From positions 3,870,001-3,902,000 of the forward strand of contig NZ_CP021983.2 of the NCBI RefSeq assembly GCF_002075285.3: a stretch of DNA of 32,000 nt, written 5' to 3'. Each line of letters opens with the position of its first letter. Position 1 is the stretch's first letter. Positions 14,314 to 29,774 of the stretch are shown here, piece after piece. Position numbers and translations under genes: made by a program. Below the pieces are notes generated by a model. That model did not search any database and was not told the DNA's origin. It saw only the letters and a list, made by a program, of their open reading frames with translations. This DNA is from Halomicronema hongdechloris C2206. GTDB lineage: Bacteria; Cyanobacteriota; Cyanobacteriia; Phormidesmidales; Phormidesmidaceae.

Positions 14314-15234
14314 CTACCAATAACTGTTCGTTGCCATCAGTAGCCAGACGCCTCGCTGCGTCTGATGACCCCCTAGTTCAGCATTTATTGGCAAAGAGGG
14401 CGGGTAGCGCTCGGGACACACCCGCTGGGGTTGATAAATCTCAGCCTGCCAGCCATAGGCGGCCAATAGCGGCCGGGGATCGTCACAGCCCCAGCGCCAA
14501 TGGCGAATCACCCGCCCCCGATCCTGGTGTCGAGCTCGGCCAGCTGCGGCCAGCGATCCCAGGGTGACTTCATCCAGGCCCAGCTGGCTCTCAGGGGCAC
14601 TCAGGTCTGATATGGCCTGTAATACCGCCTGCAGAGAGGACTCTGGCAGGTACATGGCTACCCCTTCCAGCAGCCATAGGGTAGGTCGCTCCCGCTGGTA
14701 CCCTGCTCGTATCAGCGAGGTGATCCAGTGGCTGGCGGATTCCTCCAGATCGGCATCAATCAGGTGGTGGTCACAGGCGGGCGGCACCGGCCGCAGCATG
14801 GCAGTCTTGTAATTCAGCACCAGGGCATGATCTACCTCATAGAGCTGAGTACCAGCGGGCCAGGTGAGTCGCTAGGCCCTGGTATCGAGACCCGCCCCCA
14901 GAATCACCACCTGGGGAGTACGGCCCTGATGGCAGCTAGCCTGCAGCCAGGCATCAAAGAAATAGGTGCGGATAGCCACATAGCGAGTTCGCTTGCGGAT
15001 AACCTCTGACAGGGGCCGTTGTTGTCGCTGGGCAGTGGCTTGCCATTGAGTCAGCAGGGCGTCGACCTCATGGCCGGCCAGACAAGTGGCATAGGGATCC
15101 TGAAATAGAGCAGGCTGGTGGGTTTGCTCAAAGATGCGCTTAGCCGCCACAATGCGAGCGGTGTAGGGAACGGGAGTGTGCGGCAGTAGGGACACAGCAG
15201 AGCAACGAAGTGTCAAATCAATAGAGGGGGACAC
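14314..15234 (-). pseudogene. SAM-dependent (Leu carboxyl/O-methyltransferase-like) methyltransferase interrupted by one in-frame TAG
   Basis: Track ORFs 14872..15234 and 14314..14820 share a frame. Read through, the junction gives '[34 protein letters not shown]'. The TAG at 14872-14874 sits where this family has Tyr ('[11 protein letters not shown]'). Confidence 0.75.
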
Positions 15235-15438: not shown

Positions 15439-15894
15439 ATGTCCGCCAGCGAACGCCTGCAGTTGATTCAAACCTTGAACCAACTGCCTGCCAGTCAATT
15501 TGAGGAACTCGTCATCGCCCTCAATCCGCCCGCGGGGATCTTGCCGCCTAATGTCGCTGCCCAAGGGCCGCGCCTCAGAGCTACTACACTGGGCCGAGGG
15601 ACCGACGGACCCCAATTGCCCCAATTGCAAGCCATTTTGCAGCAGCTGTTGCCGGCTGATCAGTCGTTTCTAGATGGCGACAATCCGACCCGGCGTCGAT
15701 GCCGTCCACCGGGCAGCTGTCTGTCTCAAGCGACGCTTTTACGAGCGCCAAAAGCTCAGTTAGAGGCGGCCCTGGCGGCGGTTGAGGCAGATTTAGAGAC
15801 GGCACCGCGGCAAGTCGATCGCCTGCGTCTGGAAAAGGAGGCTGAACAGCTGTTGGACAAGATAGAGGCGCTGGATAATACCCTCAATGGCTAG
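15439..15894 (+). CDS. Small adaptor-like protein: N-terminal helical module (effector-associated-domain-like) plus C-terminal coiled coil
   Basis: The N-terminal 'ERLQLIQTLNQLPASQFEELVIALNPPAGILPPNVAAQG' parallels the C-terminus of the TIR protein (24589-24810). The C-terminal 'QLEAALAAVEADLETAPRQVDRLRLEKEAEQLLDKIEALD' parallels the N-terminus of the next gene. It contains an out-of-frame stretch (see findings). Confidence 0.6.
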   Translation: MSASERLQLIQTLNQLPASQFEELVIALNPPAGILPPNVAAQGPRLRATTLGRGTDGPQLPQLQAILQQLLPADQSFLDGDNPTRRRCRPPGSCLSQATLLRAPKAQLEAALAAVEADLETAPRQVDRLRLEKEAEQLLDKIEALDNTLNG

Positions 15895-22569: not shown

Positions 22570-23070
22570 TTGGGTTCTGAGGTTCCTAACCGTTGGAGGT
22601 TTAAGGTTTGCGTCATGGCTTCTTGCTCACCGACTATGGGGAATCACCGTGGGGCAATCCCAAGCGATAGACGGGGCCAACCCCCAGGGCATCGGCCCGA
22701 TAGATCTAGCTCCGGGTATAGCGGGAGATGGCCCATGTATCGTGGGTCGTGCGATATTGTTATGCCAGGCAAATCCATTGATACCATTGGGTTTTAGTAT
22801 GAGCCCGGAGCGTGGGTCGTGTTGCGGGCATAGGATAACCAGTTGTCGCCTGGGAAATGACCCGCGCTCCCCCGTGGGATGGCCATTGATTGTATGAGGG
22901 ATACCCCATGGATGGCGGGGTGGGGTGTGCGATCGCATCATGGCCATAAATCTGTTGGCACGTGTTGCCCGGAGCATGGGGCCTTTCGGGGCCGGGGGAT
23001 AACTAGTTGTCGAGTGGGCAATGACCCACGCTCCGATGTGGGATACCTTATCAGTAACCCATTGCCTCCC
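22570..23070 (+). pseudogene. Tentative: several decayed fragments of the C-terminal tail of FGE-sulfatase domains (no intact ORF)
   Basis: Stitching + strand frames gives three tail-like pieces: 'YRGSCDIVMPGKSIDTIGF*' (ends 22797), 'PGAWVVLRA*DNQLSPG/NDPRSPVGWPLIV' (about 22806-22897), and 'VLPGAWGLS...DN*LS/CRVGNDPRSDVGYLIS' (about 22965-23056). They are comparable with the family tail 'RGGSW...CRSAYR...P..R...IGFRVV'. Units two and three are recognisably repeated at the DNA level, 164 nt apart. Confidence 0.35.
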
Positions 23071-23079
23071 TGAGCCACT

Positions 23080-23579
23080 GTGGTAGAGCTGATACTCCGT
23101 AAAGAGCGTAAACGAGCTCGCTATTTTACCGAATCCCTGGGCGATCAGATTGGCCTGGATATGATATTGGTACCCGGCGGCACGTTCCTGATGGGTTCGC
23201 CAGAGGATGAGCCTGAGCGGATTGACCGCGAGGGACCACAGCATCAGGTGACGGTGCCTGCTTTTTTCATGGGGCGATATCCGGTGACCCAGGCTCAGTG
23301 GTAGGCAGTGGCCGCACTGCCTCAGGAATCGCGGCAACTAACTCCAAATCCTTCTAGGTTCAAGGGAGACAGTCGCCCGGTTGAGCAAGTCTCCTGGTAC
23401 GACGCAGTGGAGTTTTGCGATCGCATCAGCCGTCATACTGGTCGCGCCTATCGGCTACCCAGCAAAGCCGAGTGGGAATATGCCTGTCGAGCCGGCACAG
23501 CCGCTCTGCCTATCGCTACAGCGATGATCCCCATGGAGCCTTCAATGATATTGGGTTTCGGGTGGTGTGTGTTGCCTGA
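23080..23579 (+). pseudogene. FGE-sulfatase (formylglycine-generating-enzyme-like) domain gene with an in-frame TAG and an internal deletion or frameshift
   Basis: 'LDMILVPGGTFLMGSPEDEPERIDREGPQHQVTVPAFFMGRYPVTQAQW' is followed by a TAG at 23302-23304. It continues in frame as '[51 protein letters not shown]'. From about 23502 the family tail '[25 protein letters not shown]' is in another frame, so the middle of the domain is missing. Confidence 0.75.
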
Positions 23580-23769
23580 AGTGCGATCGCAACATTCTCG
23601 GCTTGGCGGCAGACATGAGCACTCCTCTCTGGTTTCTAGCCAACCATTGCCAAGGGCCTGAGCATAACTGAGCGAAGGTGCGATCGCACCATTGCTGAAA
23701 ACCCACCAGCAGTATGGCACCCCCCTTAGCAGCTGAGTAAGATGGGGACAACATCCCCCCACCGCTGCC

Positions 23770-24813
23770 GTGAAAGACTTTTTCATCAGTTACAACAGCG
23801 CCGATAAAGCCTGGGCTGAGTGGCTTGCCTGGGTGTTAGAGGAAAACGGATATACAGTAATCATTCAAGCCTGGGACTTTCGCCCTGGCGGCAACTTCAT
23901 TATCGACATGCAGCGAGCGGCAGACGAGTCGACGCGCACCATCATGGTGCTCTCCGAGGTCTATCTGCAAGCCAAGTACACCCAGCCGGAGTGGGCTGCG
24001 GCATTCAAACAAGATCCTGAATCCCAGGAACATAGGCTGATTCCTATCCGAGTTGCACCCTGTCAGCCGACCGGAATGTTGGCACCGCTGGTCTATGTGG
24101 ACTTAGTTGGCAAAAGCGAAGCCGATGCCGAAGCATCCGTGCTGGCCTCCTTGCAAAACCGAGCTAAGCCAGCGACGCGCCCCAGCTTTCCTGGAAAGAC
24201 TCCGGGTGAGGAGCGAGTTGTCAAGAAAAAAGTTCCATTCCCGCCTGGAAGGTCAATTCGAGTGACTTGGCAACTTGTGCTTGACTATCAGCTTGAGAAT
24301 ACCTTTTTTGATCACGGTCGTGATATTGACAGGGTGGTTGATCGGTTGAAGCAACTCTCTGGAGATCAGCGCCTAGAGGATGTGGATAGAGTGTGCAAAA
24401 ACGGCAGCACCTTCCTGACGCTTAAAGGAACAGAGGAGGGGCTGAGGAAGCTTCAAGCACTTTCTGAAACAGGACAGTTGGCTGAGATAAACGGAATACA
24501 AGTCGAACAAATCAACTTACCGCCTGACTCCTCTCAAACACCGCCGATAACGCAGAATCCTCCAATGACGAATGAATCGACGACGCTGACACCGCGAGAG
24601 CGCTTAGCCTTGAATCGTAAGATTACCGGGCTTACGACTCAGTCGTTTAACGAGTTGTTGCTACTGCTTGAACCGCCTGATGGAATAGTGCCGCCACCAA
24701 CTGCACCTCAGGGCGATCGTACCTATGCCTTGCTGAGTTGGGCGCGAAGTACCACCGGCTGTGGCCTGGCCGCCGTGCGCGATGCCTTCAACGAGATTGC
24801 CCCTTCCCCTTAG
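23770..24813 (+). CDS. TIR domain protein with a central unknown module and a C-terminal helical adaptor (effector-associated-domain-like) module
   Basis: After a GTG start, 'KDFFISYNSADKAWAEWLAWVLEENGYTVIIQAWDFRPGGNFIIDMQRAADESTRTIMVLSEVYLQAKYTQPEWAAAF...LIPIRV' is a bacterial TIR_2-type domain. The C-terminal 74 aa (24589-24810) match the N-terminus of the 15439 gene. Confidence 0.85.
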   Translation: MKDFFISYNSADKAWAEWLAWVLEENGYTVIIQAWDFRPGGNFIIDMQRAADESTRTIMVLSEVYLQAKYTQPEWAAAFKQDPESQEHRLIPIRVAPCQPTGMLAPLVYVDLVGKSEADAEASVLASLQNRAKPATRPSFPGKTPGEERVVKKKVPFPPGRSIRVTWQLVLDYQLENTFFDHGRDIDRVVDRLKQLSGDQRLEDVDRVCKNGSTFLTLKGTEEGLRKLQALSETGQLAEINGIQVEQINLPPDSSQTPPITQNPPMTNESTTLTPRERLALNRKITGLTTQSFNELLLLLEPPDGIVPPPTAPQGDRTYALLSWARSTTGCGLAAVRDAFNEIAPSP

Positions 24814-24860
24814 CTGCCTCTTCGGATTCGGATGGCACTGCCCCGGAGAGGCCTTGGCTG

Positions 24861-27214
24861 GTGCCCCTAGACCGCAACCCCTGTTTTACTGGACGAGCGT
24901 CGATACTGGAGCAGATACGTCAGGCGCTCACCGCTAGAGGCACCGCCGGATTAACCCAGGTGCAGGCCATTGCCGGCCTCGGAGGTGTCGGCAAGACCCA
25001 AACCGCTCTGGAATATGCCTATCGCTACTACTGGGATGTAAACAGGGACGAGGCCTATCAGGCGGTCTTCTGGATTCGGTTAGATACAGAGCAAGCGCTT
25101 CAGAGTGGCTTTCAAGAGATCGCTGAAATGCTGATGCTCTGTGAGGCAGCGGTGAAAGAGGCGGACCAGATCGTGCGGGTGGTCAAGACCTGGTTAGCAG
25201 AGCACACAGGCTGGCTGCTGGTGCTAGACAATGCCGATGACCCCAGTTTTATCAGGAATTATCTGCCCAAGCGGGGACAGGGTCATGTGCTGATTACCTC
25301 CCGGGTGCAAGACCTGCAACGCCTGGGGGTGATTCAACCGCTATCGCTGGATGCCCTGAACCCTGAGGAGGCGGTGGCCTTTTTGCTGCAGCGGACAGGC
25401 CGCGAGGCTGCTAGCCAAGCAGCCCAGAGGGCAGCTGAGGCACTATCGGCGGAACTGGGCCATTGCCGTTGGCCCTGGAACAGGCTGGTGCTTACATGGT
25501 CACCACAGGTGCTGGCTTTCAAGACTATCTCGCCAGCTATCGGCATCGCCGTTTGGACCTGCTGAACCAAGCCGCCCCCATCATGGGCGACTATCCCGAT
25601 TCCGTAGCCACTACCTGGAATATCAACGTTGAAGCGATAGCAGCGGAATCTCTGGCAGCTACCGATCTCCTACGGGCCAGTGCCTTTCTCCATGCCGACG
25701 GCATTCCCTACGACCTGATCGTGTCGGGAGCCAGGGAGTTAGGGGAGGCGATTCAGCAGCACCTGGCAGAGGTTGAGAATGACCCCCTGGCCTTTTTGAC
25801 CCTGCTGGAACCCTTGAAGCGATATTCCCTGGTGCGCCCCGAAGCGTCGGAGCAGACCTACAGCGTTCACCGTCTGGTACAGGCTGTGGTGAAGACCAAC
25901 CTGGGGGAAGCGGCTGCCAGACAATGGGCGGAGCGGATCGTGCGGGTGGTGACCCAGGCTTACCCCAATGCCGATGACTTCAACAACTGGCCGGAATGCC
26001 AGCGATTGCTCCTCCACGCCCAGGCGGCAGCAACCGCCGTCCAACACTACCGTTTTGACTTTTCCGAAGCCGGCCTGCTGCTGATTCGGCTGGGATTTTA
26101 TGCCCAAGAGAGAGGGGAATACTCAACCGCTGACCCCCTTTACCTGCAGGGATTAGAGATATATAAAAAAGCCTTGGGCGATGAGCATCCCCATGTGGCC
26201 CTCAGCCTCAACAATCTCGCCTTTCTGTATAAATCGCAGGGCCGCTACGCCGAGGCGGAACCGCTCTATCAGCAGGCCCTGGCCTTGTGGCAACGGCTAT
26301 TGGGCGACGAGCATCCCGATGTGGCCAGCAGCCTCAACAATCTCGCCGCACTGTATGACTCGCAGGGCCGCTACGCCGAGGCGGAACCGCTCTATCAGCA
26401 GGCCCTGGCGTTGCGGCAACGGCTGTTGGGCCAGGAGCATCCCGCTGTGGCCCTCAGCCTCAACAATCTCGCCGCACTGTATCGAGTGCAGGGCCGCTAC
26501 GGGGAGGCGGAACCGCTCTTGCAGCAGGCCCTGGCCTTGCGGCAACGGCTGCTGGGCGACGAGCATCCCGATGTGGCCCTCAGCCTCAACAATCTCGCCT
26601 TACTGTATTATGCGAAGGGCCGCTACGCTGAGGCGGAACCGCTCTATCAGCAGGCCCTGGCGTTGGGTCAACGGCTGTTGGGCCAGGAGCATCCCGCTGT
26701 GGCCCTCAGCCTCAACAATCTCGCCGCACTGTATTATTCGCAGGGGCGCTACGCCGAGGCGGAACCGCTCTATCAGCAGGCCCTGGCGTTGAGGAAACGG
26801 CTATTGGGCGACGAGCATCCCGCTGTGGCCCTCAGCCTCAACAATCTCGCCGCACTGTATCAATCGCAGGGTCGCTACGCCGAGGCGGAACCGCTCTTGC
26901 AACAGGCTTTCCAGATTAGCCGAAACGCTTTAGGAGACAATCATCCCGACGTGGGCATTTGCTTGGGTAATTTAGCCTCCCTGTACGTTGCCCAAGGGCG
27001 TTATTCTGACGCGGAACCGTTGTTTCTAGAGGCGTTGAGCCTCTTTGTGCAGGCTGTAGGGCAAGACCATCCCTACACCACAGAGACGATTAATCGCCTT
27101 GCTAAGTTTGTCAGGACGGTTATTGAAGCAGGCCAGACTCAGCTCCTCTCTGACCATCCCGTCACCCAAGCCCTGCTCCAGCAGCTGCAGTCCCCGTCAG
27201 CCAAGGGCTCGTGA
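24861..27214 (+). pseudogene. NB-ARC (STAND) NTPase with kinesin-light-chain-type TPR array, split by a 1-nt frameshift
   Basis: Frame A reads 'NPCFTGR...IAGLGGVGKTQTALEYA' (Walker A), 'LLVLDNADD' (Walker B) and 'VLITSR', up to 'ALSAELGH'. Frame B continues from 25463 with 'LPLALEQAGAY' and eight 42-aa TPRs. The junction 'GGC CAT TG' (25458-25465) would read G-H-L-P-L-A-L-E with one more T. The start is uncertain: a GTG at 24861, or further upstream where frame A is open from 24738 and overlaps the TIR gene. Confidence 0.8.
26084..27091 (+). repeat. Eight tandem 126-nt units encoding 42-aa TPR_10/12-type repeats, the central ones nearly identical at the DNA level
   Basis: 'NNLAALY.SQGRYAEAEPLYQQALALRQRLLG.EHP.VALSL' recurs every 42 aa. 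Long identical nucleotide runs such as 'ggccgctacgccgaggcggaaccgctctatcagcaggccctggc' occur in several units. Confidence 0.9.
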
Positions 27215-27236
27215 GTGGCCTGTCACCTCGACTCCG

Positions 27237-27338
27237 CTCGGTGAGCGGTTGTGGCTCGGTGACCAGTTGTGGCTCGGTGACCGGTTGTGGCTCGGTGAGC
27301 GGTTGTGGCTCGGTGAGCGGTTGTGGCTCGGTGAGCGG
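27237..27338. repeat. 18-nt tandem repeat 'CTCGGTGAGCGGTTGTGG', about 5.7 copies
   Basis: Units begin at 27237, 27255, 27273, 27291, 27309 and 27327 (the last partial), with variants GACCAG/GACCGG. The array starts 22 nt after the stop of the STAND gene. Confidence 0.9.
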
Positions 27339-27468
27339 CTTGTCCTGAGCTGTGTCGCAGGGAGTCGAACCGAGCCTGTCGACAGTCTTCCCCAAATAGA
27401 ATTCCCAGAGTCGAGGTTACCCTCTACCTGGATTCCGGGTGGCGCTGCGCTTGGGTTCCCCTCCATCC

Positions 27469-29691: not shown

Positions 29692-29774
29692 GGGCGGATG
29701 GCGAAATTGGTAGACGCACCACACTCAAAATGTGGCGGCCTCTGGCCATGAGGGTTCGAGTCCCTCTCTGCCCA
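29692..29774 (+). tRNA. tRNA-Leu (anticodon CAA), class II with long variable arm, CCA not encoded
   Basis: I folded it manually. The acceptor stem is GGGCGGA/TCTGCCC (one G-U pair). The anticodon stem CCACA/TGTGG carries the loop CTCAAAA. The variable arm is CGGCCTCTGGCCATG. The T arm is GAGGG-TTCGAGT-CCCTC and the discriminator is A. Confidence 0.9.

Follow-up and report, generated by a model that had tools for sequence, protein, structure and literature searches.

How the effectors of an immune module stay silent, and then join a few activated sensors in the right ratio, is the question raised by two adjacent genes of the cyanobacterium Halomicronema hongdechloris C2206. In bacterial STAND/NLR-like systems, the ancestors of the innate immunity of animals and plants are studied, and in the present pair a TIR gene is followed on the same strand by an NB-ARC/TPR STAND NTPase, within a 32,000-nt stretch of DNA (contig NZ_CP021983.2, positions 3,870,001 to 3,902,000; hereafter the window, to which the short coordinates refer). 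The genome searched consists of one 5,577,845-bp contig with 54.6% G+C. Gene 1 (23770-24813, + strand, frame 1) is intact, codes for 347 aa and ends with the TAG at 24811-24813. Gene 2 is read in two pieces, an N-terminal one carrying the NB-ARC domain (24861-25565, + strand, frame 0, open from 24738), which is out of frame past 25460 and stops at 25563-25565, and a C-terminal one (25463-27214, + strand, frame 2) carrying the rest of the ARC module, DUF7779 and the TPR sensor array. A preliminary description of this DNA had listed the same three open reading frames (ORFs; 23770-24813 in frame 1, 24738-25565 in frame 0 and 25463-27214 in frame 2), which were found as described, and its assignment of a TIR gene beside a conflict-type NB-ARC/TPR STAND NTPase with intact motifs is borne out by Pfam, by the NF040586 profile and by the motif coordinates given below. 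Judged from its sequence, the locus is a predicted two-ORF conflict (anti-invader or cell-suicide) module. Our verdict is that the pair belongs to a kind already predicted, that the break within gene 2 at 25461 is ordinary decay or error, and that what is new is the conserved junction between the two genes (junction 1, 24807-24863).

The junction between effector and sensor genes

The NB-ARC frame overlaps the last 76 nt of the TIR gene, contains no ATG and offers a GTG at 24861, as had been noted earlier and is confirmed here. Seven such junctions were compared. Clade 1 comprises the C2206 junction, those of Filamentous cyanobacterium CCP3 and of an Elainellaceae metagenome-assembled genome (MAG), and those of two ENA metagenome contigs, the two loci yielded by a metagenome scan; clade 2 comprises the junctions of genomes G010 and G508. 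A TIR/TRADD-N gene with an adjacent same-strand NB-ARC-DUF7779-TPR gene is syntenic in CCP3 and in ERZ1740058, and the CCP3 proteins are 84% (TIR), 60% (TRADD-N), 69% (EADx, the terminal adaptor described below) and 68-72% (NB-ARC) identical to those of C2206. In G010 and G508, gene 1 is TIR-only (183 aa) and the NB-ARC is 46-47% identical to that of C2206, with the same junction layout. The Elainellaceae MAG has the same junction and an orthologous NB-ARC downstream, and its gene 1 (L040:5003-5956) codes for a trypsin-like peptidase with EADx. The effector is swappable (TIR in most loci, trypsin-like in this MAG) and the junction constant.

All seven junctions align gap-free and share one layout (7/7): CCCTTAR, in which TAR is the stop of gene 1, then 2 nt, a 10-nt arm, a 17-nt loop, a second 10-nt arm, 2 nt and TGG, the Trp codon of the NB-ARC N-terminal motif W.VP..RN.FTGR, which lies in the -1 frame relative to gene 1. 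In C2206, the candidate shift site C_CCT_TAG (24807-24813, + strand) has a Pro codon after the C and then the gene 1 stop, and reads CCC TTA in the -1 frame; CCCTTAR is invariant in all seven sequences. The hairpin (24816-24852, + strand) has a 10-bp stem formed by 24816-24825 with 24843-24852 and a 17-nt loop, and its 3' arm contains the Shine-Dalgarno (SD)-like sequence GGAGAGG, the clade-1 arms having either GGAGAGG or GAAGAGG. The W.VP..RN.FTGR motif follows at 24855-24896 (+ strand, frame 0), with the Trp codon at 24855-24857 and the GTG at 24861-24863.

The stem is paired in each of the 70 cells of the alignment (100%), as compared with 40-52% when the partner columns are slid. Between the clades, three pairs have changed on both sides (UA to CG twice, and GC to AU) and a fourth shows a wobble change, and the stem appears in the minimum free energy fold of all five clade-1 sequences. 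Nucleotide identity along the junction (0.68-0.84) resembles that of codon positions 1 and 2 of the adjoining NB-ARC, third positions being at 0.33-0.62. Of 173 genomes of the order, 4 contain the complete junction pattern, each of them a single time and at junction 1, and the reversed control gave none; this order-wide scan returned the four known sites and no new ones. A broader scan of the C2206 genome for a stop followed by a hairpin and a long -1 frame remained at background level, with four cases for -1 against three for +1. An H-type pseudoknot, pairing GGCAC of the loop with GUGCC at the GTG, was also considered and dropped, as clade 1 can form it and clade 2 cannot.

Could both breaks of the locus simply be decay, an ancestral single TIR-adaptor-NB-ARC-TPR gene having suffered two 1-nt deletions that left a dead fusion? 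Both junctions are indeed -1 shifts (frames 1 to 0 to 2), in-frame TIR-NB-ARC-TPR fusions are abundant in related cyanobacteria, and the island around the locus is eroded, with a TAG in an LCM methyltransferase gene, remnants of an FGE-sulfatase gene and a third NB-ARC paralogue in pieces. Nevertheless, this explanation is very unlikely, as only the break at 25461 is private to C2206 and the conservation of junction 1 contradicts decay at that point: motif and hairpin recur in six further loci, and in four of these the downstream ORF is full-length. In addition, six proteins with TRADD-N-EADx or EADx (P0123, P0126, P0130, P0132, P0133 and P0166) end 6-9 residues past 'GCGL', and since these stand-alone homologues end at the same point, the stop of gene 1 is native. 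An ancestral fusion broken at junction 1, suggested by the in-frame EADx-NB-ARC paralogues of C2206 itself, was rejected on the same two counts, the ends of the homologues and the conserved junction. Because the stop and its -1 continuation are kept in six other loci together with a covarying hairpin, junction 1 is not a product of decay and appears from its sequence to be a functional junction, serving either recoding or coupling. The three states proposed earlier for this boundary (separate genes, an ancestral fusion or a dead sensor) miss such a stop/-1 junction altogether. The comparison with homologous loci recommended at that time has been made, and it showed the 25461 break to be private, as expected of a lesion, and the TIR/NB-ARC boundary to be conserved, contrary to such a view.

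Recoding or translational coupling

We lean slightly towards a programmed -1 'shifty-stop' frameshift, which would give a free effector and an effector-sensor fusion, possibly with GTG initiation in addition in clade 1. Most ribosomes would terminate at the gene 1 stop and release the free effector-adaptor, and in a fraction of them the peptidyl-tRNA-Pro would slip one base back (CCU to CCC) at the slowly decoded stop; the slipped ribosomes would enter the NB-ARC frame and make a TIR-TRADD-N-EADx-NB-ARC-TPR fusion, with a predicted trans-frame tryptic peptide DAFNEIAPSP followed by LAASSDSDGTAPERPWLVPLDR. The chances seem to us even that the sensor of this module family is made only as a -1 extension of the effector gene at C_CCU_UAR and its covarying hairpin. 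If so, one mRNA might yield an abundant free effector-adaptor and a scarce fusion, their stoichiometry being hard-wired by recoding, a proposal that could equally prove right or wrong. Ligand binding by the TPRs would then cause the fusion to oligomerise, and a few oligomerised fusions would serve as nuclei to which the abundant free effector is recruited, by EADx in clade 1 and by TIR-TIR contacts in clade 2, in a way pictured like the signal amplification by Death-fold adaptors. The fusion would solve the contact between sensor and effector, since a sensor started at the GTG has no EADx. It is established for the families concerned that a trigger bound by the repeats makes STAND NTPases oligomerise and that the TIR domains of such systems degrade NAD+ or produce signalling nucleotides, and EADs are thought to act like Death-fold adaptors (PMC8195603, PMC7159879, PMC13581612); gene 1 would have a putative NADase activity, and the module a putative role in defence.

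A first indication comes from clade 2, in which GTA replaces the GTG and the sensor frame has no ATG, GTG or TTG until 24 codons past the Trp, a point beyond the FTGRE motif. Within those 24 codons, G010 and G508 differ by 11 synonymous and 4 non-synonymous changes (proportions pS 0.77 and pN 0.07), and the other two frames show no such purifying pattern. Given this difference between pN and pS, the 24 codons are evidently translated in the sensor frame with no start codon preceding them. A coding-constrained frame devoid of its own initiation codon is found, then, in clade 2; clade 1 has the GTG. In the Elainellaceae MAG and the two ENA loci, a TGA closes the sensor frame 3-4 codons ahead of CCC TTA, so that upstream of the GTG the frame could be entered only by shifting inside this short stretch. 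All seven loci keep the Trp codon ahead of the GTG, flanked by variable bases, and the codon after it is in clade 1 CTG, TTA or CTA (Leu), ATG or CGG. The linker between EADx and this Trp would measure 27-29 residues if read through the shift, against 26 in four in-frame EADx-NB-ARC relatives, a length that fits a fusion. At the site itself, C_CCU_UAR would let the P-site tRNA-Pro re-pair on CCC, and a conserved downstream RNA structure, as is found at -1 frameshift sites, is present in the 10-bp stem with its three compensatory pairs.

The alternative is coupling without recoding, in which two separate proteins would be made: the hairpin would hide the SD sequence of gene 2, the ribosome terminating on gene 1 would melt the stem, and translation would initiate at the GTG at 24861. 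We regard this as unlikely, in spite of several features that speak for it. The GTG, which follows the SD-like GGAGAGG/GAAGAGG after 8 nt, does not vary among the five clade-1 loci, nearby third positions being variable; a stem placed immediately past the stop is in an ideal position for unmasking; and gene callers choose the GTG at 24861-24863, from which a 234-aa ORF is recorded at NCBI, as they choose its equivalent in the two closest NB-ARC homologues, P0268 and P0269 (65-66% identity). Moreover, a TRADD-N protein and an AP-ATPase-TPR protein are described as a two-gene neighbourhood in the TRADD-N part of Kaur et al. (2021; PMC8195603). However, clade 2 has the same junction with GTA in place of GTG and with 24 start-free codons under strong purifying selection; the Trp codon, which lies upstream of the GTG, is invariant in all seven loci; and a sensor started at the GTG would lack an EADx to contact that of the effector, unlike its nearest in-frame relatives.

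Several points weigh against the proposed -1 shift. There is no canonical tandem X_XXY_YYZ heptamer, and the stop-to-stem spacer is of 2 nt, below the 5-9 nt usual for the stimulators of -1 frameshifting. The GTG, present in 5/5 clade-1 loci 8 nt past the SD-like 3' arm, has the layout expected of coupling by hairpin unmasking, and in the 17 codons from the stop to the GTG the excess of third-position changes is weak (by hand count on the alignment). Clade 2 consists of two draft genomes only, and the covariation stems from a single clade-1/clade-2 split, that is, from one evolutionary event per pair. Compared with dinucleotide shuffles, the folding of the hairpin is not significant (z -0.1 to -2.1), and because folding energies do not differ from those of the shuffles, the case for the hairpin rests on conservation and covariation. 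Independently of the shift, the deletion at 25461 may be an error of the hybrid 454, PacBio RS and 36-bp Solexa assembly.

A literature search for frameshifting in TIR/STAND systems returned no relevant report, and no such recoding in a bacterial STAND system was found in it. If true, a recoding signal at this junction would be a new regulatory principle, the fixed-ratio synthesis of a seed (the fusion) and its substrate (the free effector), and its site a natural -1 'shifty stop' of a new class. Annotation is affected in practice, since pipelines place the start of such sensors at an internal GTG or TTG or mark them as pseudogenes, and the architecture would be systematically misread.

The adaptor, the broken sensor and their neighbours

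The protein of gene 1, which is present in NCBI records, consists of a TIR domain (residues 4-119), a TRADD-N-like module (about 163-248) and an EAD-like helical adaptor that we call EADx (about 269-345). Pfam identifies the first as TIR_2 (E 2e-34), and a comparison with solved TIR structures gave distant TLR-type matches only, in alignments that do not cover the putative catalytic Glu. The TRADD-like_N match (E 5e-4, 20.3 bits) is under the cut-off of 23.7; the module aligns at 31-56% identity over 132-186 residues with P0123, P0130, P0132, P0133, P0166, P0174 and P0233, the second of which clears that cut-off, and it lies, as in the TRADD-N effector proteins of Kaur et al. (2021), between an N-terminal effector and a C-terminal domain. 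Another example of the same arrangement is found in genome G019, where the TIR-TRADD-N-EADx module of gene 1 recurs with 50% identity over 342 residues inside a larger protein (C363, L011:5893-9642, - strand). That protein has 1249 aa in the order TPR, TIR, TRADD-N, EADx, EAD1, TIR, and is the product of the third gene after a MoxR and a vWA gene; a ternary system thus makes use of this effector-adaptor module too. The sequence VTWQLVLDYQLENTFFDHGRD in gene 1 had been considered as a relic of the NB-ARC start motif, and this was rejected: it is kept in the TRADD-N module of G019 and therefore belongs to the TRADD-N domain.

EADx (24574-24804, + strand) is a terminal adaptor domain of about 75 residues at the C-terminus of gene 1 that has no Pfam model, a Pfam search with seven of its sequences having given no hit even at E <= 5. 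The genome holds eight copies (seven of them found by tblastn in addition to that of gene 1), each forming the very N- or C-terminal end of a protein, and 511 representative clusters match the domain, mostly at protein termini among the 150 listed. Its language-model neighbours are EAD7 and EAD1 clusters (score 0.92-0.93), which we take as a lead only. This terminal, multi-copy behaviour matches the 'EAD principle' set out by Kaur et al. (PMC7159879, PMC8195603). At locus L012 (G012:C134, 2168-5805, - strand), the theme is spread over three genes and involves an unrelated NTPase: a TIR-EADx protein (258 aa), a P-loop NTPase (405 aa) and a TPR protein (480 aa) are encoded separately in that order, with spacers of 83-117 nt.

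As for the sensor, its NB-ARC motifs are all intact (Walker A GLGGVGKT at 24975-24998, Walker B LLVLDNADD at 25215-25241 and LITSR at 25290-25304). Pfam finds NB-ARC in the N-terminal piece (E 6e-9) and, in the C-terminal one, DUF7779 with 7-8 TPR_10/TPR_12 units (TPR_12 E 1e-114). The profile NF040586 matches the first piece along its positions 3-181 (E 5e-47, 160.9 bits) and the second along 184-735 (314 bits, over the cut-off of 300); since it spans both in this way, the break splits a single contiguous family. The TPR array contains a 126-nt tandem repeat running from 26174 to about 26897-27019 (5.7 copies) whose 89% matches mean that it has been recently expanded or homogenised. A second tandem repeat, of 18 nt (27236-27343, 5.9 copies), begins 22 nt past the stop of gene 2 and is unrelated to the first.

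The break itself lies at 25458-25465 (+ strand; GGCCATTG), in the ELG-H-LPLAL (GxP) motif of ARC as seen in a three-frame translation. The earlier proposal of a single-base loss in the GxP/LPLAL motif, to be repaired with one more T, proved right: every intact homologue aligned has one codon between the residues of 25458-25460 and 25463-25465, where C2206 has 2 nt, and the three closest relatives read ELGHLPLALEQAG at that point, with His as the codon. No slippery motif and no conserved structure were found at this site, and the orthologues are in frame, for which reasons the break is a lesion and not a signal. The deletion is probably real, and the sensor is then truncated after the nucleotide-binding domain, making it a recent pseudogene unless the assembly is wrong. 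That the frameshift arose in assembly, the living strain having an intact sensor, seems somewhat unlikely. The assembly is a hybrid of old read technologies (17x 454, 14x early PacBio RS and 41x 36-bp Solexa; PMC6416890), the 583 codons past the break hold no second lesion, and a small ORF of the window (15439-15894) with a compensated indel pair within about 45 nt may contain sequence errors too. On the other hand, the site has a run of two T, not the long homopolymer that 454 miscalls, and was covered 41x by Illumina reads; some frameshifts were checked by the genome authors, by their own statement (PMC6416890); the window has lesions that an indel error cannot make (the LCM methyltransferase TAG, and the stop and deletion of the FGE-sulfatase); and a further member of this family, elsewhere in the genome, is a multi-lesion pseudogene. 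With the deletion, neither the fusion nor a sensor initiated at the GTG would extend past the nucleotide-binding domain, gene 1 being intact, and the product of gene 1 may still serve the nearby iSTAND/MoxR/vWA operon through the EADx-EAD9 protein encoded at 15439-15894. In itself, the broken sensor is of local interest only, as a case of conflict-island decay in a cultured strain.

The TIR and NB-ARC genes sit amid stacked conflict-type genes of the window. The small EADx-EAD9 protein (15439-15894) is encoded by the first gene of the iSTAND/MoxR/vWA operon, and the same stretch codes for an EAD9-iSTAND protein, a MoxR AAA ATPase, a vWA protein, a SAVED protein and a DUF4157/eCIS-core protein; a tRNA-Leu gene (29692-29774) lies near its end. 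In the 15439-15894 ORF, EADx is read in frames 1, 2 and 1 (especially at 15565-15610), the segment RASELLHWAEGPT fitting the EADx consensus in the other frame for about 14 codons, and this change of frame is either a compensated indel pair or two sequencing errors some 45 nt apart. The LCM-family methyltransferase gene (14314-15234, - strand) has its in-frame TAG at 14872-14874, within the 'GLDTRA-RL' motif. The FGE-sulfatase remnants (22570-23661) combine an in-frame stop, an internal deletion and a frame change, and 5' of them lie repeated fragments that give similar peptides ('ITSCR.GNDPRS'). Three genes of the NF040586 type occur in the genome: an intact one with an 858-aa open frame (C1:3841588-3844161), the present gene, and a fragmented EADx-NB-ARC-TPR paralogue outside the window (G000:C1:3591020-3593337, - strand), which is spread over several frames with TGA stops as a multi-lesion pseudogene.

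Comparison with known systems

By sequence, the gene pair is a member of the predicted TRADD-N effector/AP-ATPase-TPR neighbourhood of Kaur et al. (2021; eLife, PMC8195603), as presented in the section 'The bacterial TRADD-N proteins' and Fig. 3G. Shared with it are an N-terminal TIR effector, a central TRADD-N and a C-terminal adaptor, a next gene whose product is an AP-ATPase (NB-ARC) ending in TPRs, the occurrence in a filamentous cyanobacterium, and terminal adaptors in several copies per genome (the 'EAD principle'). By contrast, the C2206 adaptor matches no Pfam EAD or bDLD model and the sensor gene has no adaptor of its own; the system is a predicted one, and that section does not describe a conserved stop/hairpin junction or recoding. 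The match to NF040586, the 'FxSxx-COOH system tetratricopeptide repeat protein', covers NB-ARC and TPR along profile positions 3-735, and a Pfam survey of the larger ORFs of the window, in which small peptide genes were not searched, found no FxSxx maturation genes near the locus.

In single-chain TIR-NB-ARC-TPR proteins of cyanobacteria and actinobacteria, the TIR is joined in frame directly to W.VP..RN.FTGR. Such in-frame proteins are common in Leptolyngbyaceae and Nodosilinea, and the C2206 TIR is 47-77% identical to theirs. Compared with them, the C2206 locus has TRADD-N and EADx inserted and its frames set one base apart. As to the Avs-like nature suggested earlier, the general architecture stands, with the Avs/AVAST logic of effector, STAND NTPase and repeat sensor, and phage proteins are bound by the TPR-like sensors of characterised Avs systems (PMC13581612). 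The C2206 NTPase, however, is in the AP-ATPase/NB-ARC clade and not in NACHT, and its effector is on a separate ORF. PADLOC gave no Avs, bNACHT or other model for the NTPase piece, and for the TPR piece only the generic 'TPR' model and a weak PDC-M71B. The pair is accordingly not called Avs or bNACHT by any model used, and the neighbourhood of Kaur et al. remains the closest.

At the level of the junction, the natural peptidyl-tRNA-Pro shifty stops known so far, at CCC_UGA (Listeria phage tsh, pheL), share a P-site Pro codon beside a stop and a downstream hairpin, and operate in the +1 direction (PMC5009743). The shift proposed here for C_CCU_UAR differs from them in being -1, with its 2-nt spacer and no X_XXY_YYZ. 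The programmed frameshifts of dnaX (tau/gamma) and of the phage tail chaperones G/GT fix a ratio of short to long product. The pair in C2206 would be like both in obtaining two products from one start, the longer of which adds a module.

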